A stretch of 64,000 nt of DNA. Source: TPA_inf: Saccharomyces (Eukaryota). The stretch is from NCBI GenBank assembly GCA_000146045.2, contig BK006941.2, positions 896,001 to 960,000 on the forward strand. Direction: 5' to 3'. The translations under genes were made by a program, and so were the position numbers. This document shows positions 17,503 to 43,672 of the stretch, piece by piece. Under the pieces are notes generated by a model, which saw only the letters and a list, made by a program, of their open reading frames with translations, did no database searches and was not told where the DNA came from. Positions within the stretch are counted from its first letter, which is position 1; each line of letters starts with the position of its first letter.

Positions 17503-18738
17503 TTATGCTGATCTTGGAGCGATCTTGAAGCCGAGTATGTCATTCTTACCGGGCTCAACAAGACTTTCTTCACTGACTCTCACGCCGCCAACGGTTTCAA
17601 TGCTTGCAATGGTGACCTCGCCACCCATGATATACCTGGCAACTTTGCCAACAGGGGTTCCTCGCTTGACCAAAAAACAATCTCTAAATACGTTGGTTCC
17701 GTTGCCACCCGTAAAAGTCTGGATGTTCTTCACAGTGTACACCGGTATTAGACCAAGGATGTCCGTTGCTGCTTGCAGAACCTGAACAACACCCGTAGAT
17801 CCGAATCTATACAGGACCAAATCTCTGATATTTTCAATTCTGTTAAGGATCTTGTCGTCCAGTGGCTTTAGTTTGTCTGGCTCGTCCTCAAATGTGTCAA
17901 CAAATTCCGTGCCCTCCTCGTATAATATAAAACCTTGCTTTTTCAATTTCCTCAAAAAAACTTCCGTCACTGCACTGGTCAGTACAGCTTTGGTGTCAGG
18001 ATACTTTAGCATGATTTTAGAAACATTTTTATCGGCGTCAGGGTGGTCAATCTTGTTGAGTGCCAACACAGTTGGAAATTTCTCCATCATAAAGGACTTG
18101 ACCACTCGAGTGATCCATTCGTCATCCCATTTTTCCAAAGGTGGTAGTCCCTTCAACCTGTCCAGGGCTTTTTGGATCATGGGCGCATGTGAACCGTACC
18201 CACCGAATTGCGCTTGAAGTGTGTCCACTATGCTAGATTTCGTTGCTGTATGTTTACGCACAATAGACCCCCATCTTTTCTTCAGGTTCCCCTCAACCCA
18301 AAGCCTGATTTCGTCTTGCAGCCATTCTATATCGTTCAATGGATCATATCCTCTTGTGTTCTTCCCCTCTGCATCTGTGGTTCCACTAACGTCCACCACA
18401 TGAATAAGAGCATCTGCGTGTCTTAAATCATCCAAGAATTTATTTCCAAGCCCTCTGCCGGAATGCGCTCCAGGCACAAGCCCTGCCACATCCAACAGTT
18501 TGATGGGGATATGCCTCTTACCCTTGCTACACCACCCGTAGTTAGGTTTACAAAGATCTTCCTTGCCAAATCTGGAGCAAGCACACTCAACTTGCAAGTA
18601 GCCGGTTGCCTGATTTGGCTCGATCGTGGTAAAGGGAAATGCTCCTACCGCCGCACCTGCGTCCGTCAAAGAATTTAATGTGGTGGATTTCCCTGAAGAT
18701 GGCTTACCCACAATACCAATCAATGGATCCCTGGGCAT
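17503..18738 (-). CDS. Obg/DRG-like P-loop GTPase of unknown function (YGR210C), 411 aa.
   Basis: The G1 motif GKPSSGKST is at the N-terminus, and the architecture is Obg-family. Length and position match YGR210C. Confidence 0.8.
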
Positions 18739-19020: not shown

Positions 19021-19036
19021 TTCTAGAATATTCTAG
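19021..19036. promoter_or_regulatory. Canonical 3-unit heat-shock element TTCtaGAAtaTTCtag in the divergent YGR210C / ZPR1 promoter.
   Basis: There are perfect alternating nTTCnnGAAnnTTCn units. A further CTAGAAtaTCC partial unit lies about 20 bp downstream. Confidence 0.55.
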
Positions 19037-19240
19037 CCCCATCAGGGCTAGAATATCCTAAAAGTTTATAGTTGACGAAAATTTTTCAGCGATGAGATGC
19101 ACATTTATAATGCTATGATGTTCAACGCAAAGGAAATCATAGCGTTATCGGGTAGGTTCGCATCGTTAGCAATAGCTAGTCGCATATATACACAGAGATA
19201 CATATTATACCTATACCGTTAAGAAATAGGATAGAAAATA

Positions 19241-20701
19241 ATGAGCGAACAAAAGGAAGATTTGTTTAAACCAGTAGGAGAAGCTGCTGCAGAGGTCGAA
19301 GATGAAAGCATAGCCGAACAGAACAAAGCTAATGACGGCGTCAAGTTAACCGGCGCACAGGACGCCATGGGCCATCCAGTGCAAGAGATAGAGTCTCTTT
19401 GTATGAATTGTGGAAAGAACGGTACAACCAGACTTCTTCTGACTTCCATCCCTTATTTCAGAGAAATAATTATTATGTCATTCGACTGTCCTCACTGTGG
19501 GTTTAAGAACTGTGAGATCCAACCCGCTTCTCAAATTCAAGAGAAGGGCTCTCGTTACGTTTTGAAAGTGGAGTGCCGTGAAGATTTTAACAGGCAAGTT
19601 ATTAAGTCAGAAACTGCCACTTGTAAGTTTGTCGAGCTAGACATTGAGATTCCTGCTAAGAGAGGTCAATTGACGACAGTTGAAGGTTTGTTATCCGAGA
19701 TGATCGACGATCTGTCGCAAGACCAGGAAATGAGAAAATCTATAGACGAAGCTCTTTACAAGAAGATCGATGACTTCATACAGAAAGTTAAATCCTACAT
19801 CAATTGTGAACCCAACACTATTCCGATTACATTTATTTTGGATGATCCTGCGGGAAATTCCTGGATCGAATACAAACCCGGTGAACCTCAACACAAATGG
19901 TCTCATACCCAGTACGTGAGAACCGACGAACAAAACGTTCAAGTTGGCATTATTACTAGAGACCAGTTGGAGCAACGTCGCCAAGAACAATTAAAACAAT
20001 TGGCCAACCGTGAAAGAAATCCTTCTGAATCTGTCAAAGTTGGCTCAGCAAACCCACAGTTTTTGTCAGACGCCACCGACATCGAAAACTTTAACAACGA
20101 GGTGCAAACATTCAGAGCTTCTTGTCCATCGTGTACCCAAGAGTGTGAAACTCATATGAAGCCAGTAAATATCCCACACTTTAAAGAAGTCATTATCATG
20201 TCGACGGTCTGCGATCATTGTGGTTATAAGTCTAATGAGGTGAAGACCGGTGGTGCCATCCCTGACAAAGGAAGAAGGATTACTTTATACTGTGACGATG
20301 CAGCTGACTTGTCCCGTGATATTTTGAAATCTGAGACCTGTAGTATGGTAATTCCTGAATTACATCTTGATATTCAAGAAGGTACATTGGGTGGTAGATT
20401 CACCACTTTGGAAGGTTTACTAAGACAAGTCTACGAAGAACTAGAATCCCGTATTTTCACTCAAACTTCGGATTCCATGGACGAAGCAACGAAAGCCCGC
20501 TGGGTAGAATTTTTTGCCAAGCTAAAGGAGGCCATCGCTGGGAAAGTCAAGTTCACAGTCATTATGGAAGATCCATTGGCCGGGTCGTACATACAAAATG
20601 TCTACGCCCCAGATCCGGATCCAAACATGACTATCGAAGATTATGAAAGAACTAAAGAGCAAAATGAAGACCTGGGATTGTCCGATATCAAGGTTGAGTA
20701 A
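19241..20701 (+). CDS. ZPR1: Zinc-finger protein Zpr1 (eEF1A-binding), 486 aa (YGR211W).
   Basis: The product has two duplicated ZPR1-type C4 zinc-finger modules (C-x2-C...C-x2-C twice: CMNCGKNG...CPHCGFKN and CPSCTQEC...CDHCGYKS). Confidence 0.9.
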   Translation: MSEQKEDLFKPVGEAAAEVEDESIAEQNKANDGVKLTGAQDAMGHPVQEIESLCMNCGKNGTTRLLLTSIPYFREIIIMSFDCPHCGFKNCEIQPASQIQEKGSRYVLKVECREDFNRQVIKSETATCKFVELDIEIPAKRGQLTTVEGLLSEMIDDLSQDQEMRKSIDEALYKKIDDFIQKVKSYINCEPNTIPITFILDDPAGNSWIEYKPGEPQHKWSHTQYVRTDEQNVQVGIITRDQLEQRRQEQLKQLANRERNPSESVKVGSANPQFLSDATDIENFNNEVQTFRASCPSCTQECETHMKPVNIPHFKEVIIMSTVCDHCGYKSNEVKTGGAIPDKGRRITLYCDDAADLSRDILKSETCSMVIPELHLDIQEGTLGGRFTTLEGLLRQVYEELESRIFTQTSDSMDEATKARWVEFFAKLKEAIAGKVKFTVIMEDPLAGSYIQNVYAPDPDPNMTIEDYERTKEQNEDLGLSDIKVE

Positions 20702-21039
20702 CGATCGTTGGCCTCGGTATCACCTCCCCCTTTCCTCTTCCTCTTTACATATATCCTAACCACACAAGCACTCATTTGATATGATAATACTTATTCGTTT
20801 TTATTCAAATAGATAGCGCAGTCTTGAAGATTTACCTATATTTTTAAACTTTTGTATAATAGTTGAAATAGATAATACAGCATTTTTTGGCTCCTGCTTC
20901 ATATCTTTTTTTTTAGGTTTTTGCTTTATATTCTTTCTTTTAACTCAACTTGTGCGGAGCAGAGGTAAAGAGGACAACTATAAATGCTGTCAAAACGAAC
21001 AATCTACAGATATTTTTACGAAAAGGAAAAAGCGCAAGA

Positions 21040-22446
21040 ATGAATCTTAAACTTTCTGCTATTGAAAGTTACTTTTTCCATAGAAGCAGACTAAATTTGC
21101 ATTCATGTTTTTATGTCGGAATCAAACTCAACGAATTGCCCAAAAAAAGTCAACTGATAGCGGCTCTTAAGTATACTGTAATCCAACATGAACGTTTGAC
21201 TTGTAATGTATTCTATGATGAATTGAAAAAGGAAAACTTCCTACAAAACATTCTTGAGCCACTGAAATTTTGCGATCTAGTAGAATACCGCCACGATTGG
21301 GACCAGTTAGGGGAAACCGAAATTAACCACATCTTTCAAAGGTATAACTTTTCATACAACGAGAATAAACCTTTATGGAAAATTCTGATCCTCCCTAATC
21401 AAAATCAAATGCTATTGCTGACAGATCATGTTCTCATGGATGGGATGTCCGCTATTCATGTGTGGGAAACGTTTATGGAAGGCCTACAGATGCAACAGCC
21501 GGTTGAAATTGATGAAACAATATATTCACCATCATTAAATTCATCAACTGAAAAAATAATGTCAGCCCCACTATACGGAGATTGGCCCATACCTTGGAAT
21601 TGGCATATAGTGCGACAATTGGTCAGTAGACTACATTATTGGTTTCCACAAACAGTCGTAAAAAACAATAGAAATTTAATCCAATTTGCCAACTACTCAT
21701 TTCCAAAAGACCTGCTGGATGATAAACCGAGCGATGGAACTCAAAAATACAAAGTTAAAAACACGAACCATCAATGGGAGTTTCGATTATCGCCGACCCA
21801 TCTCAACGACATTTTACAAGAATGCAAGGCCAATAATACTTCGTTGACTTCCCTTTTAGGTGCCCTGGTCTGCACCAGTTTCGAAAAAATAGCTGCACAT
21901 GAGTATACCGGATCATTTTTGAAAATTGAATTACCAATGAATATTAGAAAGCCTTTTGAACGAGTCTTGAAATTACCTTCAGATGATAAGCTCGCCGTGG
22001 GAAATTTTATTGCGGTCATAGAATTCAACCATAAACTACATCAAAACCGTGGAATATGGGATATCGCTTCTCAAATTCAAAGGGCCATAAGAAGCAGTTC
22101 CGAGGATAAAATAATAGATAAAGTAAACGAAGTAAAGTTATTGGAGGTTATTTCTTCTCAACAATACATAGAAGATAAAATTAGCTTGAATAACGGACCT
22201 TCTTCCACATTTGAAGTAACAAACTTAGGATTTCAAACATTTAAAGATGCATGCAACACCAGTTTACCGTTTTATATAGTGGATGCTACATTCAACGAGC
22301 CGCAAGGAATATCTTCAATTTTCTCACTAAGCGTAATCTCTACTCCTGGTAACGGACTACATTGTTGTATCAGTTATCCAAATACTCTCACTAAAGTGCT
22401 AGAACCCCACTGGCAATATATGAAAGATTACTTAAATTTATACTAG
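21040..22446 (+). CDS. SLI1: N-acetyltransferase for sphingolipid-like compounds (myriocin/ISP-1 resistance), 468 aa (YGR212W).
   Basis: The product has the condensation/acyltransferase-like fold, and length and position match SLI1. The ORF track starts at 20950, but the recalled 468-aa product starts at the ATG at 21040 (MNLKLSAIES...). Confidence 0.7.
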   Translation: MNLKLSAIESYFFHRSRLNLHSCFYVGIKLNELPKKSQLIAALKYTVIQHERLTCNVFYDELKKENFLQNILEPLKFCDLVEYRHDWDQLGETEINHIFQRYNFSYNENKPLWKILILPNQNQMLLLTDHVLMDGMSAIHVWETFMEGLQMQQPVEIDETIYSPSLNSSTEKIMSAPLYGDWPIPWNWHIVRQLVSRLHYWFPQTVVKNNRNLIQFANYSFPKDLLDDKPSDGTQKYKVKNTNHQWEFRLSPTHLNDILQECKANNTSLTSLLGALVCTSFEKIAAHEYTGSFLKIELPMNIRKPFERVLKLPSDDKLAVGNFIAVIEFNHKLHQNRGIWDIASQIQRAIRSSSEDKIIDKVNEVKLLEVISSQQYIEDKISLNNGPSSTFEVTNLGFQTFKDACNTSLPFYIVDATFNEPQGISSIFSLSVISTPGNGLHCCISYPNTLTKVLEPHWQYMKDYLNLY

Positions 22447-22511
22447 CAGCACTTCACTAGCTCAAATACAGAATAAAACCACATTTCCCACATGTAAATA
22501 TAGAAAGCAGT

Positions 22512-23465
22512 TTATTCGCTCTTTGAAGCGAGATCTTCTTCGATAGACGTCACCTCAACGTCAGGATAGTCGGTGCCGTCAAATCTTGCTGATTGTTGCG
22601 CTTGAATAGACTCTTCATGTATTCTAAAAATGTTAATTAGTGGGAACGCCACAATAAAAATTAATACGAGTAAAAACATTGGTAAACCATCAAAAATATA
22701 AAGATACCACTCGTGCGAGGCAATTTCTCCGTCATAACCCTGAATAAATTCAACAGCTCTGACGATCGACCTAATTAAAATCAGGAAACTGTTCACCAAT
22801 AAAGCAATGTTTAGGTATTTCCAACTACCATACCTTACCGATACATTGGTTGGTTTTTTGCTCATCTTGAAAATGAACAAAACCTCATTTATAATGAAGA
22901 GACCAAAAAAAGCAATTTGAATGAACAAACCAGCTGTAACGAGATGAGAACCAGAAGATGCACTTGTCACTTTAGACATCATAGCACCACCAATTGCTTG
23001 TAATAGAAGACTGCCTACATCGCCAATCACAAATATTGTAGTATTGAATCTAGCGGGCATGATCATTAAGTTTTCTGCGAACAGCAGAGTAGCCATTCTA
23101 CCAAAAATCATGTAAATACTGGCAGCATATAATGTTGGAGACACCAGCAAGAAAACCGTTTGAATAATATAGGGGTTTAGTAGTGTGGTGTCTTTGCTTG
23201 ATTTACATCTAAACGCAAAGCCCACACACTCAACAAAACACCCAAATATAAAGGGAATGTACGCTCCTGCTAAGTTTACCGTACCGTAATACCGCAATAC
23301 GGGTTGGGACTTCATAAGAGAGCCAACTCTCCTTTTACTTTTCACAGAATAATGGAATAGTAAAATTACAAATGCTACCCCTGATACTGCAAAAAGTACC
23401 GTAAAAAGTATACTCGCACCTAATTCCGGAGTGTATCTATATAACTCGAAGCCGTCTTTTGCCAT
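22512..23465 (-). CDS. RTA1: Rta1-family 7-TM lipid-translocating exporter-like protein, 317 aa (YGR213C).
   Basis: Seven predicted TM helices are present, and RTA1-like family sequence and length match. Confidence 0.8.
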   Translation of the reverse strand: MAKDGFELYRYTPELGASILFTVLFAVSGVAFVILLFHYSVKSKRRVGSLMKSQPVLRYYGTVNLAGAYIPFIFGCFVECVGFAFRCKSSKDTTLLNPYIIQTVFLLVSPTLYAASIYMIFGRMATLLFAENLMIMPARFNTTIFVIGDVGSLLLQAIGGAMMSKVTSASSGSHLVTAGLFIQIAFFGLFIINEVLFIFKMSKKPTNVSVRYGSWKYLNIALLVNSFLILIRSIVRAVEFIQGYDGEIASHEWYLYIFDGLPMFLLVLIFIVAFPLINIFRIHEESIQAQQSARFDGTDYPDVEVTSIEEDLASKSE

Positions 23466-24574
23466 GTTCGAAGTGGTGAAAAGTGCTGACTGTCTATTAC
23501 ATACTTTTACAGGGTTTATTATTATAGAATGAAACAGGCAAGGTATCTTATCCCTTTATTATGAAAACTATATATACGCATAAGTCTTTTGCTGCATGAT
23601 AAGCCCCTTCCCAAGAATATGACAACCTCTTATTGTTCTTTTCACCAAAGATCCACGGAACTCATCTTTAGCAAGTGAGGCTTGAAATATCACAGATATC
23701 ATTGTGAATACCGCATTGAGCAGATTGTTGACAGCGGGCATCTTACTAACAGGCGCAATCTAAAGAAGCCGCGAAAAAAAAAAGAACACGCTAAACGATT
23801 CACCCATGCCAGCCAAGTGTAGATTTGTTTGTAGAGGAAAACAGTTGATGAGCAATTTACAGTGTTTTTTTATCTTAGTAATATTCATCAAAATTCATAG
23901 GAAATAGTCAATGATGCATGTCTGAAAACAAAACGACCTATATACCTTATTGTGGCTTGTAAAGTTTAAACTTAAAAATAAACTTTCTTTTTGAATGATA
24001 GATATTTCCGCTTTTGGATGCGCTTCACAAGAATAGAAGCAAAAAGTCCGGTTAAAATTGAAATATGATAAAAACCCAAACATATTAAAAAACCCAGACA
24101 TAAAGAAAAAAACTTTGAAAAAAAAAGTATTATGCCGCTGAGCGCGCCACGTTAAAAGCTCGAATTCTTCGCATTGGTAGTAGCGCAAAGTCCAATGAGC
24201 GCACCTCAAGTGAGAAACGCAGGCCCAGAGATTCTCCAGGCAGGAAGGAATTGGGACAGATCCTGCCTGGAGGGATGGAGGAATTTACTTCGTAGGCTGG
24301 AACAGGCTCATCTCAGCCAACGATTGTAAATGTGCAGGGCCATCGTTACAATCCTGCGCACCCTACCATGGATACCAGAATCCCGTCGTGTTCCCAATTG
24401 TGAGTAGTACAGTGGCCTGCTGCCGGGCAGATAGTAGCAGGGCAGGACACTTGCCAGATCCCGTAGCAAGGATGCTTATAATATATCGAAATGTAGCATT
24501 GTTAGTTTACTTCGTAAACTGCCCTTGTAGAGTGAGGTATAGCTTAGAAAATAGCAAACTAAATAGAGAGCGAA

Positions 24575-25788
24575 ATGTCCTTACCAGCTACTTTTGACTT
24601 GACTCCAGAAGATGCCCAACTTTTGTTGGCTGCTAACACTCACTTAGGTGCTAGAAACGTTCAAGTATGTTATACTCATTCCCGATTATATAATAGAGTA
24701 ATGTGTGATTGAAAACAGTTCGAGTGAAAGAATAGCCACAACCAGGTTTCCCGCCAACCAAACGGAATGCTGGGATAGCATTTTTCAGGCTGAATAAGAA
24801 GAGAAATATATGAACAATCATTAAAACAGTTTGAAACTCCAGCTAATTATCAGCGAATATTTTGCCAATAGACTTTCTAATTGTATTATGTTATTAAATT
24901 TTAAATCGCTAATGAAAAAAAAAAACAAACCTTTGGTATTAAACCTCTTTCAATGAAATCAATTAATTCCGGTACCTATTCTTCCGACGCTGTTAGCCAA
25001 CTATAAATGCCATTTTTTCATAGTACATTAATTTGAATCAGTTGATCATTCACAGCATATACCAAGTGTACGTTTTTGAATCTTTTATACTAACTTTTTC
25101 TTCTTTAATTTTGTTTCAGGTTCACCAAGAACCATATGTTTTCAACGCAAGACCAGATGGTGTCCACGTTATCAACGTTGGTAAGACCTGGGAAAAATTG
25201 GTTTTGGCTGCCAGAATCATCGCTGCCATTCCAAACCCAGAAGACGTTGTTGCCATCTCTTCCAGAACTTTCGGTCAAAGGGCTGTTTTGAAGTTCGCTG
25301 CCCACACCGGTGCTACCCCAATCGCCGGTAGATTCACTCCAGGTTCTTTCACCAATTATATCACCCGTTCTTTCAAGGAACCAAGATTAGTTATTGTCAC
25401 CGACCCAAGATCAGATGCTCAAGCCATCAAGGAAGCTTCTTACGTTAACATCCCTGTCATTGCTCTAACTGATCTTGACTCTCCATCAGAATTCGTCGAT
25501 GTCGCTATCCCATGTAACAACAGAGGTAAGCACTCCATTGGTTTAATCTGGTACTTATTGGCTAGAGAAGTTTTGAGACTAAGAGGTGCTTTAGTTGACA
25601 GAACTCAACCATGGTCCATCATGCCAGATTTGTACTTCTACAGAGACCCTGAAGAAGTTGAACAACAAGTTGCTGAAGAAGCTACCACCGAAGAAGCTGG
25701 TGAAGAAGAAGCCAAGGAAGAGGTTACCGAAGAGCAAGCTGAAGCTACTGAATGGGCTGAAGAAAATGCTGACAACGTCGAGTGGTAA
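24575..25788 (+). CDS. RPS0A: 40S ribosomal protein S0-A (uS2), spliced. Exon 1 is 24575..24664, the intron is 24665..25119, and exon 2 is 25120..25788, giving 252 aa.
   Basis: Exon 1 encodes [30 protein letters not shown]. The intron has a GTATGT 5' splice site at 24665, a TACTAAC branchpoint at 25088-25094 and a CAG 3' splice site at 25117-25119. Exon 2 continues [20 protein letters not shown]..., which is the uS2 family, and ends in an acidic C-terminal tail. Confidence 0.9.
24665..25119 (+). other. RPS0A: RPS0A spliceosomal intron (455 nt).
   Basis: The intron has canonical yeast signals: GUAUGU, UACUAAC and a poly-U stretch followed by CAG. Removing it restores the uS2 reading frame. 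Confidence 0.9.
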
Positions 25789-26156
25789 GTAAGGTGATAT
25801 TTACAAATAGTATATTAATAATTATAGTATAATGTTTTATTAGAATAACAGATTTCTTTATCAATTTAGCGGCTAAATAAAAATCAAGAAAAAAGAAATA
25901 CATTCATTGTGTCATCTTGTCACACATTTAGCCATGTACTTTATTTGCTGAGAAGTTTAATCAATTGAGAGTAGTTAGCTATTGTAGTAAAAATGTGCAA
26001 ATGAAGTCTTATCAACACGTAGCGTATATAGTGATCTAAAACAGTTAGAAATATAATAAGCGAACTTCTAAACCATTTTAGAGCACATAGCCATGGAGAA
26101 TAGGTACTTGTTTTGACCCGCTCGACGAAGTGGTACGTAGTGATTGCGTGGATTAG

Positions 26157-26507
<351 letters not shown>

Positions 26508-26632
26508 TTGGAGCACCCTTACTAAAAAAAATATTCATTATGTAGAAACTCATTTCATGTACATACAAAATCAAAAATAAAACAACAAATAGCTGAAGCA
26601 AGAAAACGCTACTTTACTTATAAAAGAAAACG

Positions 26633-28462
26633 TTATGCCTGAATAGTCAGCCTTTTGTATAAATCCTTTACACTCAATGGCTTACTAGGCAGTGAAGAAT
26701 AAAGAACATAGTACAGCTTATTTCTATTGACCATTATAGACTCCCCTCGGACAATCTTTCGTACAGTAGCAAACGAGAAATAATTTGTCCTCATTTGCGA
26801 CAACAATAGATTGTATGGTCTGAACATACTCTTGAATTTAATAGGATTGTTTTGAAGTTCTAAGGTTGTATGCTTGTTAGAAACCGTGGTTTTGAGCTCA
26901 ATTGAAATGCCACCGGGTAGACGTTTAGGATCTTTTAACCTAAGTAATAATGCGAACAATGGAAAATGGTTAATGAGTGCAATGACAGCTTCCGAGAATA
27001 TTTCGATAGTTATTGTTAGCATTCTCAAAACTGTGTATGACATATAGAATGCCATCACTGTGGGAGTCAAGAACACTAGAATAATAAATAATAATGTTCC
27101 CAATAGCAATTGATCTAGTTGAAAATAGTTATGGTCAATCCTATTTCGTAAAACGTTCCTCTTTTTACCGCAGAACAGGTTAAAAAGACTAGCCATAATA
27201 TTCAACTGACAATGGTACAGTTTACTGCTGATACGATAAAAAACATATATTGGAAAACTTAAAATTGCAAAAAAATCAATCGCTAGGGAAACAGCAAAAG
27301 AAAAGCCAACGAGAAACATCATATATATCGTTAACGTGAGCAAAGATGATAGGGTTTTCGGATCAATGAGTCTTTTTATGAATGTGGTATAAGAAAATTC
27401 TATCACCCAAAGAAATAATTCGCTCAAAAAGTTCGCAAGTTCTGCATTTAATTTGATGCCAAGGGGGTTATTTGCTAACGTTTCAGTTATTGTTTTTAAT
27501 GAATCATATAAAAAAAACTTCAATACTCTATGGGATGCCGACACCAAGAAATCTCGATTCTCAATAAGTATGGCCCCCAATATTAAACCAAATGAAATGT
27601 CATTAATAATAAGCCAAATTGTATTATACAATAAAATATAATCGGGATAGAATTTAGAAGGCATATATGAATGTGAGAATTGACTATTAGAATTATCTTT
27701 TTCCACCATAGAGCCAACATTCTGTATGTTATCCTTCTTATTAATACGCTCATACTGTACTGGGAAATAGCAAATTTGTTGACAACGAAGATCGATTTGC
27801 TGGACAAATGCCGAGTAATTTACCAACTGAAAGTGCGAATAATTTAATAACGAGGATACGAGACTAGCAATAGAGCAGATCACAAAAGTCAAATAAAAAC
27901 CAATTTTTGCGACCATTTTATAAATACAAGTAGATGAACACCAAGCTGCGACACTATTAAGCATAGTACCCCTCAAATTTTCCTGTGATGTTTGAATAAA
28001 CGGGTAAAGCTCATTTAATGCTTTACAATATGCGGGGAATAGATTAATGATGTTCAAAGTTTCACTCAATTTCTTATTATCTCTCTTGTATCTTGGATGT
28101 TGCTCTAATTTAGAATAGTTCAGAGTTTCACCCACACTACTATGAAGACCAACTTCTTTTTCTGGTATGATGAGCGAGATGGGATCAGAAGAATAGAATT
28201 GCATAAATTTCAGCTTGGGTATTCTAAAATGGACATTACAGGGATCAGCAACTTTGTAGTTCCAACCCTCCGCTCCATTGTTCTTAGTAGCTACCACTGA
28301 ATAAGGGGGCCGTATGCTTACTTCTTCTAAATACTGAGGTTCGCAAACACCTAAGACAACAAAATGCGTCTTCTCAAATGAAATTGCCAAAGCTACCTGA
28401 GGTCCTTGAGCTGCGGAATTCTCGAACAAGGATTCGTATGGCCAGAAAATGTAATTTGGCAT
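26633..28462 (-). CDS. GPI1: GPI-GlcNAc transferase complex subunit (PIG-Q homologue), 609 aa (YGR216C).
   Basis: A multi-pass membrane protein whose length and sequence match Gpi1. Confidence 0.85.
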   Translation of the reverse strand: MPNYIFWPYESLFENSAAQGPQVALAISFEKTHFVVLGVCEPQYLEEVSIRPPYSVVATKNNGAEGWNYKVADPCNVHFRIPKLKFMQFYSSDPISLIIPEKEVGLHSSVGETLNYSKLEQHPRYKRDNKKLSETLNIINLFPAYCKALNELYPFIQTSQENLRGTMLNSVAAWCSSTCIYKMVAKIGFYLTFVICSIASLVSSLLNYSHFQLVNYSAFVQQIDLRCQQICYFPVQYERINKKDNIQNVGSMVEKDNSNSQFSHSYMPSKFYPDYILLYNTIWLIINDISFGLILGAILIENRDFLVSASHRVLKFFLYDSLKTITETLANNPLGIKLNAELANFLSELFLWVIEFSYTTFIKRLIDPKTLSSLLTLTIYMMFLVGFSFAVSLAIDFFAILSFPIYVFYRISSKLYHCQLNIMASLFNLFCGKKRNVLRNRIDHNYFQLDQLLLGTLLFIILVFLTPTVMAFYMSYTVLRMLTITIEIFSEAVIALINHFPLFALLLRLKDPKRLPGGISIELKTTVSNKHTTLELQNNPIKFKSMFRPYNLLLSQMRTNYFSFATVRKIVRGESIMVNRNKLYYVLYSSLPSKPLSVKDLYKRLTIQA

Positions 28463-34952: not shown

Positions 34953-35023
34953 TGCGCAAGCCCGGAATCGAACCGGGGGCCCAACGATGGCAACGTTGGA
35001 TTTTACCACTAAACCACTTGCGC
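34953..35023 (-). tRNA. tG(GCC): tRNA-Gly, anticodon GCC, 71 nt with no intron, transcribed by Pol III.
   Basis: The reverse complement reads GCGCAAGTGGTTTAGTGGTAAAATCCAACGTTGCCATCGTTGGGCCCCCGGTTCGATTCCGGGCTTGCGCA. A-box (TGGTTTAGTGG) and B-box (GGTTCGATTCC) promoters are present. The anticodon loop is UUGCCAU. An oligo-T terminator follows on the minus strand (a run of A at 34925-34952 on the plus strand). Confidence 0.92.
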
Positions 35024-43457: not shown

Positions 43458-43672
43458 AACGCCCTCCTTACTCATTGAGAAAAAGGGCAGAAAAGTTCCA
43501 AAAAATATGGCAAGCCCACAGTAACGGACAGCTTTACCTGTTTCTATGGAGACAACACCCGGATGGTTCTGGTAAAAGGCAAGAACCATGTTCGTTATAA
43601 GTTCTATAGGCAATAAAAGGCCCACAGTTCTTGATGTTGACCTCCCTCCGCCATTGATCTGTAAAGCTGCTT
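43458..43672 (-). ncRNA. SNR7: U5 spliceosomal snRNA (long form about 214 nt; the short form shares the 5' end).
   Basis: The reverse complement from 43672 reads AAGCAGCTTTACAGATCAATGGCGGAGGGAGGTCAACATCAAGAACTGTGGGCCTTTTATTGCCTATAGAACTTATAACGAACATGGTTCTTGCCTTTTACCAGAACCATCCGGGTGTTGTCTCC...CATATTTTTTGGAACTTTTCTGCCC. It includes the invariant U5 loop 1 (GCCUUUUAC) and the Sm site (AUUUUUUGG). Confidence 0.9.

Follow-up and report, generated by a model that had tools for sequence, protein, structure and literature searches.

The G+C-rich block upstream of RPS0A in Saccharomyces cerevisiae is very probably the intervening region (IVR) of an Hmo1-enriched (category I) ribosomal protein gene (RPG) promoter, rich in G+C and bearing IFHL motifs, with the category I label resting on the Hmo1 table of Reja 2015. 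Such a block is already known as a well-described Hmo1/Fhl1/Ifh1-binding part of the promoter, RPS0A being already tabulated, and it represents neither a new RNA nor a new element. Among other readings, the first-pass annotation had offered an unusual promoter element; that it is a promoter element stands, and its kind is the usual one, with the layout of the Hmo1-enriched promoters.

The block is located between RTA1 (22512-23465, minus strand, 99% identity to Rta1p) and RPS0A, whose ATG is at 24575 and whose syntenic orthologues carry Pfam Ribosomal_S2. Exon 1 of RPS0A comprises 30 codons on the plus strand (24575-24664), and the intron begins with GTATGT at 24665. These gene identities, together with the position of the ATG, bear out the RTA1-RPS0A intergenic placement given initially. 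The G+C-rich segment first noticed at 24190-24470 is real and slightly larger, spanning 24133-24475 with 54.2% G+C, compared with 34.7% in the upstream intergenic DNA and 32.3% in the 99 bp preceding the RPS0A ATG. In the 64-kb window (the whole stretch of DNA analysed here), this is the sole non-coding stretch of at least 300 bp with at least 50% G+C, the remaining 300-bp windows at this level being all inside ORFs. Considering its composition, its conservation, its density of GGCNG/GGCAG and the literature, the region would constitute a platform for Hmo1 and Fhl1/Ifh1(/Sfp1), and probably the site of the 'fragile' nucleosomes.

A pattern scan locates two Rap1 sites upstream of the block, both on the plus strand. 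Site 1, AAACCCAAACATA (24072-24084, core ACCCAAACAT at 24074-24083), lies 501 bp upstream of the ATG and points to RPS0A, and site 2, AAACCCAGACATA (24090-24102, core ACCCAGACAT at 24092-24101), follows head-to-tail at 18 bp from start to start. The Rap1 core has just three matches in the 64-kb window, these being two of them, and both sites are kept in the six Saccharomyces species compared (S. uvarum has ACCCAAACATG just beyond the site 1 core). A poly(dA) tract, AAGAAAAAAACTTTGAAAAAAAAAGT (24103-24128, plus strand), separates them from the G+C-rich block. The earlier statement that the usual Rap1/poly-T architecture is lacking was mistaken, with two Rap1 cores and an A-tract at 24072-24128, just outside the segment it had delimited. 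The weak Rap1-like match that it had reported, GCACCCTACCATGG, is present at 24358-24371; it departs from the ACCCANNCAY core, the five other species have CACTCT in its place, and it was dropped as a Rap1 site in favor of those at 24072-24102.

Where the block ends on its 3' side and the A+T-rich core promoter begins, a conserved TATA-like element is found, TATAATAT (24477-24484, plus strand), with two mismatches to TATAWAWR. This element would be the one scored with two TATA mismatches by Reja 2015. Between the Rap1 sites and the TATA-like element lie 375 bp with 50.7% G+C. The canonical TATA (TATAWAWR) has no match in or near the block, its sole match in the scanned intergenic region being at 23569, and the motifs of Abf1 (RTCRYNNNNNACG), Sfp1 (AAAAWTTTT) and exact Fhl1 (YKYGCGTC or GACGC) have zero matches across the intergenic region.

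This layout can be compared with what is published for the class. According to Reja 2015, two Rap1 sites tend to mark Hmo1-enriched genes, poly(dA:dT) is enriched between Rap1 and Fhl1-Ifh1-Sfp1/Hmo1, and IFHL (GGCNG) lies within broad stretches of G+C-rich DNA whose extent agrees with that of Hmo1 binding. Knight 2014 described category I promoters with multiple Hmo1 motifs on both strands, in which Fhl1/Ifh1 are found at ~100 bp and Hmo1 at ~150 bp downstream of Rap1, and Kasahara 2011 reported for Hmo1-enriched genes an IVR about twice as long as in Hmo1-limited ones, with a G+C content of 48.6% compared with 36.1%. At RPS0A, the two head-to-tail Rap1 sites face the gene (24074 and 24092, both on the plus strand), a poly(dA:dT) tract (24103-24128) follows them, ahead of the Fhl1-Ifh1-Sfp1/Hmo1 region, the IVR is long and raised in G+C over its 375 bp and even more so in the core block, and GGCNG is present on both strands, four times on the plus and three on the minus.

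Moreover, the occupancy of the factors at RPS0A and the role of Hmo1 can be taken from the literature. The check on Rap1/Fhl1/Ifh1 ChIP-exo signal proposed with the first-pass annotation is answered by one published table, which shows occupancy at the level of the gene: in Table S2 of Reja 2015, RPS0A is listed with two Rap1 sites, a spacing of 7 and two TATA mismatches, and the ChIP-exo percentiles are 75.9 for Hmo1 (occupancy 31157), 75.2 for Fhl1 and 69.3 for Ifh1, the one for Rap1 being low (14.6). Also, the double deletion of hmo1 and fpr1 lowers the binding of Fhl1/Ifh1 at RPS0A (Kasahara 2020). Regarding the role of Hmo1, Kasahara 2011 reported that it masks the IVR against ectopic assembly of the pre-initiation complex, and that upon deletion of hmo1 the start sites move upstream into the IVR (RPS5 and RPL27B).

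The IFHL motif has the consensus CTAGGCGG or TCTAGGCAGAG, with the core GGCNG. Seven GGCNG cores are present in the block, 6.5 times the density of the window, and the block is the densest GGCNG/GGCAG spot of the 64 kb. Given the local composition, GGCAG is enriched (67 of 5000 shuffles, p 0.013), and GGCNG alone shows no enrichment beyond the local G+C (787 of 5000, p 0.16). The S. cerevisiae copies, CCAGGCAGG (twice, convergent), GTAGGCTGG, CCGGGCAGATAG and GCAGGGCAGG, all contain the GGCNG core, although the strongest consensus has a CTA prefix that is missing from them (they read CCAGGCAG and not CTAGGCAG), being matched by core and not by weight matrix. In addition to the two arms of the 12-nt inverted repeat described below, a further convergent pair of IFHL-like cores at 24291-24318 is formed by GTAGGCTGG on the plus strand (24291-24299, with GTAGG invariant) and GGCTG on the minus strand (24314-24318).

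The conservation of the block was addressed in six species, S. cerevisiae, L006sp (L006, Logan SRR10997049; the closest relative compared, with 81% identity), S. mikatae, S. kudriavzevii, S. eubayanus and S. uvarum. Among them, the block keeps a length of 340-350 bp, a G+C content of 54-57% and 6-8 GGCNG cores, with an identity of only 65-81%. This answers the question of conservation among Saccharomyces that had been left as a check: length and G+C are kept in the six species, and some sub-blocks are invariant. In the alignment, the first of these is the box TGCCGCTGAGCG (24133-24144, plus strand), with TGCCGCTGAG invariant in the six species, and it shares a direct repeat, TGAGCGC[GA]CC, with 24196-24205, which is part of a second conserved box, TCCAATGAGCGCACC (24191-24205, plus strand), ~120 bp downstream of the first Rap1 site. 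This second box coincides with the average position reported for Fhl1/Ifh1, factor positions being those of the literature. The best-conserved part is 24418-24475, CTGCTGCC-G-GGCAGATAGTAGCAGGGCAGGACACTTGCCAGATCCCGTAGCAAGGATG, where 60-75% of the positions are invariant, including TAGTAGCAGGGCAG in the six species, and where back-to-back GGCAG cores are found at 24420 (minus), 24426 (plus) and 24441 (plus). The sequence runs noted earlier, CTGCTGCCGGGCAG (24418-24431) and AGCAGGGCAGG (24437-24447), are both there. In the center of the block the conservation is low, with 10-30% of the positions invariant.

Outside Saccharomyces, the syntenic RPS0 gene of Naumovozyma dairenensis has the same order of elements: the Rap1 core is matched at -501, a second site resembling Rap1 can be read by eye ~20 bp downstream of it, and next come a T-tract, a GCGTC core and, between -430 and -120, a G+C-rich block. 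The exact CTAGGCAG is found twice in this block, together with CCAGGCGG and TTAGGCAGG.

The inverted repeats that first drew attention to the region, three in number, were all found in their reported places. For the first one, described as 24236-24244 pairing with 24262-24270 across a 17-nt loop, the repeat is real and its dimensions are different: it is a perfect 12-nt repeat, CTCCAGGCAGGA/TCCTGCCTGGAG (24234-24245 and 24261-24272), with a spacer of 15 nt. A perfect repeat of this length with a spacer of up to 60 nt appears in one of 2000 dinucleotide shuffles of the block. The other two, AATTGGGA/TCCCAATT (24249 and 24392) and GATTGTAA/TTACAATC (24322 and 24346), are of 8 nt each, a length that arises in ~18% of the shuffles, so that just the 12-nt repeat beats chance. 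Taken together, repeats of at least 8 nt are in mild excess, three against 0.5-0.7 expected (p ~0.015-0.03).

The arms of the 12-nt repeat, located 160-198 bp downstream of Rap1 site 1, contain IFHL-like motifs. The left arm, on the plus strand, includes AGGCAGG, which S. kudriavzevii and S. eubayanus retain as well, and the right arm carries CCAGGCAGG on the minus strand, where S. cerevisiae, L006sp, S. mikatae and S. kudriavzevii share CAGGC[A/T/G]GG, the counterpart in N. dairenensis being CCAGGCGG. Thus, as read from the motifs, the 12-nt repeat would be two convergent CCAGGCAGG sites whose complementarity became perfect in the lineage of S. cerevisiae alone. It is intact in the eight S. 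cerevisiae contigs examined, lies where the block is least conserved (10-25% of positions invariant), and is missing as a perfect repeat from L006sp, S. mikatae, S. eubayanus and S. uvarum, with an imperfect 8/9 version in S. kudriavzevii. None of the three repeats is preserved in the orthologues, which keep 5-6 of 12, 2-5 of 8 and 3-6 of 8 pairs, respectively. The predicted hairpin at the 12-nt repeat has -13.6 kcal/mol as DNA (z -4.2) and -24 kcal/mol as RNA, the corresponding hairpin of the closest relative having -1.6 kcal/mol. A different repeat, CCAATGGGCCC(C), of 11-12 nt, is found elsewhere in the block of S. eubayanus and S. uvarum; the latter species has five repeats of at least 8 nt (p 0.001), and in S. 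mikatae and S. kudriavzevii the counts are at or below chance. In the anatomy and conservation observed here, there is no conserved structure, and the inverted repeats would be a by-product of IFHL-like motifs in opposite orientations, which does not fully account for the rarity of the 12-nt repeat and the mild excess in some species.

Another reading of these repeats is that the block is transcribed as a structured RNA, either as a long RPS0A 5' leader or as an independent or divergent ncRNA. A local RNA hairpin is indeed stable on both strands (z -3.6 on the plus and -5.9 on the minus), the fold of 24190-24470 in S. cerevisiae is mildly favorable (z -1.6 and -2.0, respectively), and the upstream shift of start sites in hmo1-deleted cells (Kasahara 2011) implies that transcripts through such regions can exist. 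Nonetheless, a search against Rfam of 20000-28000 with E up to 1 gives zero matches in the block, two chance miRNA matches being elsewhere, and at the gathering score the entire window yields only tRNA and U5, outside the block; ARAGORN found no tRNA in it either, in agreement with the first impression that it is not a recognisable one. The covariation proposed as a check was evaluated with RNAalifold on the six species, where the covariation term of +1.18 gives no support, and the z-scores by species (-1.0, -0.1, +0.2, 0.0, -1.5 and -3.9) are about zero in L006sp, S. mikatae and S. kudriavzevii, and between -1.0 and +0.2 in four of the six. Moreover, the pairs of the three repeats are broken in the orthologues and the 12-nt hairpin is missing in the closest relative. 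Since the conserved TATA-like element at 24477 comes after the block, a normal start would also fall beyond it, which would speak against transcription of the block. The structured leader or ncRNA suggested initially is, then, very improbable. In yeast, autoregulatory RNA structures of RPGs, such as those of the RPL30 and RPS14B pre-mRNAs, are inside the transcript (5' exon or intron) and conserved as structure. The RPS0A block shares with them the association with an RPG and a hairpin-forming sequence, but differs in being upstream of the TATA-like element and in having no covariation.

The repeats could alternatively matter as DNA structure, if a cruciform or hairpin is extruded at the 12-nt repeat, and at other repeats, under negative supercoiling upstream of such an active gene, or if a dimeric factor binds the palindrome, which we consider unlikely, if less so than the RNA. 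The 12-nt repeat is rare by chance, is predicted to form a stable hairpin, combines a long repeat with a short spacer and is intact in the S. cerevisiae contigs, at the distance from Rap1 where Hmo1 is expected; long repeats elsewhere in the block of S. eubayanus and S. uvarum, together with the fold z of -3.9 in the latter, point in the same direction. On the other hand, the repeat is missing or degenerate in the five other Saccharomyces species, falls where conservation of the block is lowest, and the counts in S. mikatae and S. kudriavzevii are no higher than chance. Also, a 15-nt spacer between 12-bp G+C-rich arms is unfavorable for cruciform extrusion. Hmo1/HMGB proteins bind four-way junctions, and a review (PMC11325855) cites the hypothesis that cruciforms at the supercoiled boundaries of genes are stabilised by Hmo1. 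RPS0A resembles this scenario in having a stable inverted repeat in DNA reportedly occupied by Hmo1, upstream of a very active gene. It differs in having a lineage-specific repeat with a long spacer, extrusion being hypothetical, and in that the published idea concerns gene boundaries generally and not IFHL pairs. Finally, the low identity of the central block and the small ORFs of 51-69 aa that overlap it could suggest a neutral relic (decayed coding sequence, mobile-element fragment or recombination scar) with no present function. A coding relic was rejected, as none of the four small ORFs that overlap or adjoin the block has a Pfam family above threshold. The recombination relic proposed earlier finds no support either: the six Saccharomyces species have the block as orthologous DNA whose length and composition are conserved, and Naumovozyma has its counterpart. 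Neutral, A+T-biased intergenic drift would not maintain length and G+C so tightly despite the turnover, several sub-blocks are invariant across the six species, and factor occupancy at the RPS0A promoter is reported as high, all of which leaves the relic with a practically negligible probability.

For the preferred reading, an Hmo1-enriched IVR, we infer the exact positions of the factors and the start site at RPS0A as follows. The tandem Rap1 sites at -501 and -483 would recruit Rap1 and the chromatin would be opened, with the A-tract next to them. On the ~340-bp G+C-rich region, Fhl1/Ifh1(/Sfp1) would be placed ~100 bp downstream of Rap1, and several molecules of Hmo1, an HMG-box protein with a preference for G+C-rich DNA and repeated GGCNG (IFHL) on both strands, would be bound further downstream. 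Over this region, Hmo1 would help to keep Fhl1/Ifh1 and would bar the assembly of the pre-initiation complex; because the complex would be excluded from the IVR, transcription would start downstream of the TATA-like element at 24477.

Compared with other category I promoters (the IVRs of RPS5 and RPL27B, and RPS11A), RPS0A has the same Rap1 pair at ~-500, poly(dA:dT), an IVR of ~340-375 bp with 51-54% G+C and a TATA-like core. RPS0A differs in its perfect 12-nt inverted repeat, which a convergent pair of IFHL-like sites makes up, in having no exact match to the Fhl1 motif YKYGCGTC in the block, and in a G+C content somewhat higher than the class mean of 48.6%. Nothing essential sets the RPS0A promoter apart from the class. 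Because of the S. cerevisiae 12-nt repeat, the S. eubayanus/S. uvarum palindrome and the excess of repeats in S. uvarum, it could be speculated that Hmo1-bound IVRs are under recurrent lineage-specific selection, or a template-switch bias, that creates palindromes prone to form hairpins or cruciforms. This idea is a long shot; if true, such palindromes would favor the binding of Hmo1 as a structure-preferring HMG-box protein. The RPS0A locus carries little weight as a discovery and is a textbook-like worked case of the Hmo1-enriched promoter class. Its near-constant length and G+C content, along with the turnover of its sequence, agree with the view in the literature that what Hmo1 reads is composition and repeated degenerate motifs, and not one precise site.

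RPS0A lies on the forward strand, with its start at 24575, a first exon of 90 nt and an intron from 24665 (GTATGT), and RTA1 (99% identity to Rta1p) occupies 22512-23465 on the reverse strand. The gene order GPI1, RSM27, RPS0A, RTA1, SLI1, ZPR1 is common to the orthologous loci of S. kudriavzevii, S. eubayanus, S. mikatae and S. uvarum, and is identical in the closest relative used (L006, Logan SRR10997049) and in Naumovozyma dairenensis. The G+C-rich block that the first-pass annotation described between both genes is confirmed, being 54.2% G+C at 24133-24475, with 34.7% in the upstream remainder of the intergenic DNA and 32.3% in the final 99 bp 5' of the RPS0A ATG. At the 100-bp scale, G+C goes from 0.28-0.33 to 0.50-0.56 across ~24150-24500, and all other 300-bp windows with at least 50% G+C in the 64 kb fall within ORFs. 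Ordinary genes of annotated type for tRNA-Gly(GCC) (34953-35023, minus strand) and the U5 spliceosomal snRNA (Rfam RF00020, 47 bits; 43494-43618, minus strand) are also present.

The usual Rap1/poly-T architecture had been considered absent. However, the Rap1 core ACCCANNCAY is matched twice on the RPS0A strand immediately 5' of the block, by ACCCAAACAT at 24074 and ACCCAGACAT at 24092, which are head-to-tail and 18 bp apart and are followed by an A-tract at 24103-24128. These are two of the three matches to this core in 64 kb, and both sites are kept in 6/6 Saccharomyces species. The usual architecture, Rap1 sites with poly(dA:dT), is thus present in the RPS0A promoter and begins ~60 bp upstream of the block and just over 100 bp upstream of 24190, where the block had been taken to start. 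The Rap1-like match proposed earlier (GCACCCTACCATGG, 24358-24371) deviates from this core, and the other species all have CACTCT there. Natural variation in this upstream activating region is seen in one S. cerevisiae contig (L016, ENA ERZ26178799; equivalent of 24087-24147), where the Rap1 sites are separated by a spacer with 1 bp deleted, G>A at 24097 converts the second site into ACCCAAACAT, and the TGCCGCTGAGCGCGCC box carries two C>T substitutions.

According to Reja et al. 2015 (PMC4579351), Hmo1-enriched ribosomal-protein genes tend towards two Rap1 sites, and poly(dA:dT) separates Rap1 from the Fhl1-Ifh1-Sfp1/Hmo1 region. The intervening region (IVR) from the Rap1 sites to the core promoter, named by Kasahara et al. 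(2011, PMC3105432), is ~2x longer in these genes, with a mean G+C of 48.6% versus 36.1% in Hmo1-limited genes, and its masking by Hmo1 leads to pre-initiation complex assembly downstream of it; the same authors give CAG-repeat binding as the basis of an earlier Hmo1 isolation. In RPS0A, 375 bp with 50.7% G+C separate the second Rap1 site from a conserved TATA-like element (TATAATAT, 24477-24484, 2 mismatches to TATAWAWR). Table S2 of Reja et al. 2015 (PMC4579351) gives for RPS0A 2 Rap1 sites with spacing 7, 2 TATA mismatches, percentile ranks of 75.9 (Hmo1), 75.2 (Fhl1) and 69.3 (Ifh1), and an Hmo1 occupancy of 31157, the median of two-site genes being 21852 and Hmo1-poor genes having a few hundred. 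Moreover, the hmo1 fpr1 double deletion lowers Fhl1/Ifh1 binding at RPS0A (Kasahara 2020).

In Knight et al. 2014 (PMC4117944), degenerate Hmo1 motifs occur in multiple copies and on both strands of category I promoters, and the distances downstream of Rap1 are ~100 bp for Fhl1/Ifh1 and ~150 bp for Hmo1. The IFHL motif, with a GGCNG core, has the consensus CTAGGCGG (Lavoie 2010) or TCTAGGCAGAG (Malinina 2024). The block contains 7 GGCNG cores (4 on the plus and 3 on the minus strand) and is the window's densest place for GGCNG (6.5x the window average) and GGCAG (~15x); the runs CTGCC-G-GGCAG and AGCAGGGCAGG singled out by the first-pass annotation are further back-to-back GGCAG cores. GGCAG is enriched given local composition (67/5000 shuffles), and GGCNG alone shows no enrichment beyond it (787/5000), so much of the motif density reflects G+C richness itself, in line with suggestions in the literature.

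Across six Saccharomyces species, the block maintains a length of 340-350 bp, 54-57% G+C and 6-8 GGCNG cores, at only 65-81% identity to S. cerevisiae. Conservation is patchy, being high at the Rap1 sites, TGCCGCTGAG (24133) and TCCAATGAGC (24191), with a peak at 24418-24475, where TAGTAGCAGGGCAG is invariant. The conserved boxes at 24133-24148 (TGCCGCTGAGCGCGCC) and 24191-24205 (TCCAATGAGCGCACC) share TGAGCGC[GA]CC, 57 bp apart, and each is one base off the PAC-type GATGAGC core. In S. eubayanus (L003) and S. uvarum (L008), the region homologous to ~24190-24225 holds a lineage-specific perfect palindrome, CCAATGGGCCCC-GAC-GGGGCCCATTGG (12 nt, or 11 nt in S. uvarum), that surrounds the conserved CCAATGAGC box. 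The syntenic gene of N. dairenensis has the same order overall, with a Rap1 core match, a second site recognised by eye as Rap1-like, a T-tract, a GCGTC core and a G+C-rich block of ~300 bp, 48-57% G+C, with exact CTAGGCAG twice.

The three inverted repeats reported previously are all present, the first being longer than noted: a perfect 12-nt repeat (CTCCAGGCAGGA, 24234-24245; TCCTGCCTGGAG, 24261-24272) with 15 nt between arms. A 12-nt repeat with a spacer of at most 60 nt occurs in 1/2000 dinucleotide shuffles of the block, and an 8-nt repeat in ~18%, so that neither of the other two by itself exceeds chance; together, 3 repeats of at least 8 nt against 0.5-0.7 expected represent a mild excess (p ~0.015-0.03). 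Both 12-nt arms represent CCAGGCAGG, an IFHL-like word, with one copy per strand, and they lie downstream of the first Rap1 site at a distance of 160-198 bp. The perfect repeat is intact in 8/8 S. cerevisiae contigs recovered and specific to this species, and conservation is lowest around it (10-25% of positions invariant). Its DNA fold is -13.6 kcal/mol versus -1.6 kcal/mol in the closest relative, which has no hairpin, and other species retain just 5-6/12 pairs at the aligned positions. By alignment reading, S. kudriavzevii carries an imperfect version, AGGCAGGAA / TTCCCGCCT (8/9), and four species retain CAGGCNGG on the minus strand, with CCAGGCGG in N. dairenensis, pointing to what looks like an ancestral state of two convergent IFHL-like sites. 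In the S. cerevisiae lineage, the arms would have become perfectly complementary by a small duplication (TGGAGGGATGGAGG) and a handful of clustered changes, and a template-switch event could be the source. At 19028-19056, ATATTCTAGCCC and GGGCTAGAATAT form a separate 12-nt inverted repeat, also perfect and with 5 nt between arms, in intergenic DNA downstream of a 411-aa ORF on the minus strand (17503-18738), within the area of the divergent YGR210C-ZPR1 promoters.

Palindromes in such regions might be favoured for their structure; a review (PMC11325855) cites a published hypothesis in which cruciforms at supercoiled gene boundaries are stabilised by Hmo1. The rarity of the perfect 12-nt repeat is greater than expected from two degenerate motifs alone, another palindrome of 11-12 nt, CCAATGGGCCC(C), is found in S. 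eubayanus and S. uvarum at the site homologous to 24192, and S. uvarum has five repeats of at least 8 nt (p 0.001). However, the repeats are not positionally conserved, their number does not exceed chance in S. mikatae and S. kudriavzevii, and the spacer of the 12-nt repeat is long; we give this structural reading a small probability. A structured leader or RNA, also proposed earlier, gains no support from the cross-species folding check (RNAalifold consensus covariation term +1.18). Fold z for the whole block is -1.0 in S. cerevisiae, -3.9 in S. uvarum and -0.1, +0.2, 0.0 and -1.5 in the others, and for 24190-24470 it is -1.6 and -2.0 on the two strands. The block has no Rfam match and, as the first-pass annotation held, no recognisable tRNA, and the small ORFs there match no Pfam family. 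Since the block is upstream of the conserved TATA-like element, normal RPS0A initiation should fall downstream of it.

Between this element and the RPS0A ATG, a palindrome, TAGTTTAC-TTC-GTAAACTG (24503-24521), is identical in 6/6 Saccharomyces species, with no obvious counterpart in N. dairenensis. It folds into an 8-bp hairpin (-5.4 kcal/mol, z -4.1), includes a pair of GTAAAC cores that are forkhead-like and inverted, and pairs 9/10 with an invariant AGCAAACTAA (24553-24562); it could act as a hairpin in the 5' UTR or bind a protein. A 16-nt direct repeat of 88% identity (24284-24299, TTTACTTCGTAGGCTG; 24506-24521, TTTACTTCGTAAACTG) connects the block with this palindrome, probably by chance because the upstream copy is just partly conserved.

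The original observation is largely correct, but its interpretation is mostly wrong, the block being a known kind of promoter region at a gene that published tables already list in the class. The sequence of the RPS0A block fits the Hmo1-enriched, category I class of ribosomal-protein promoters.
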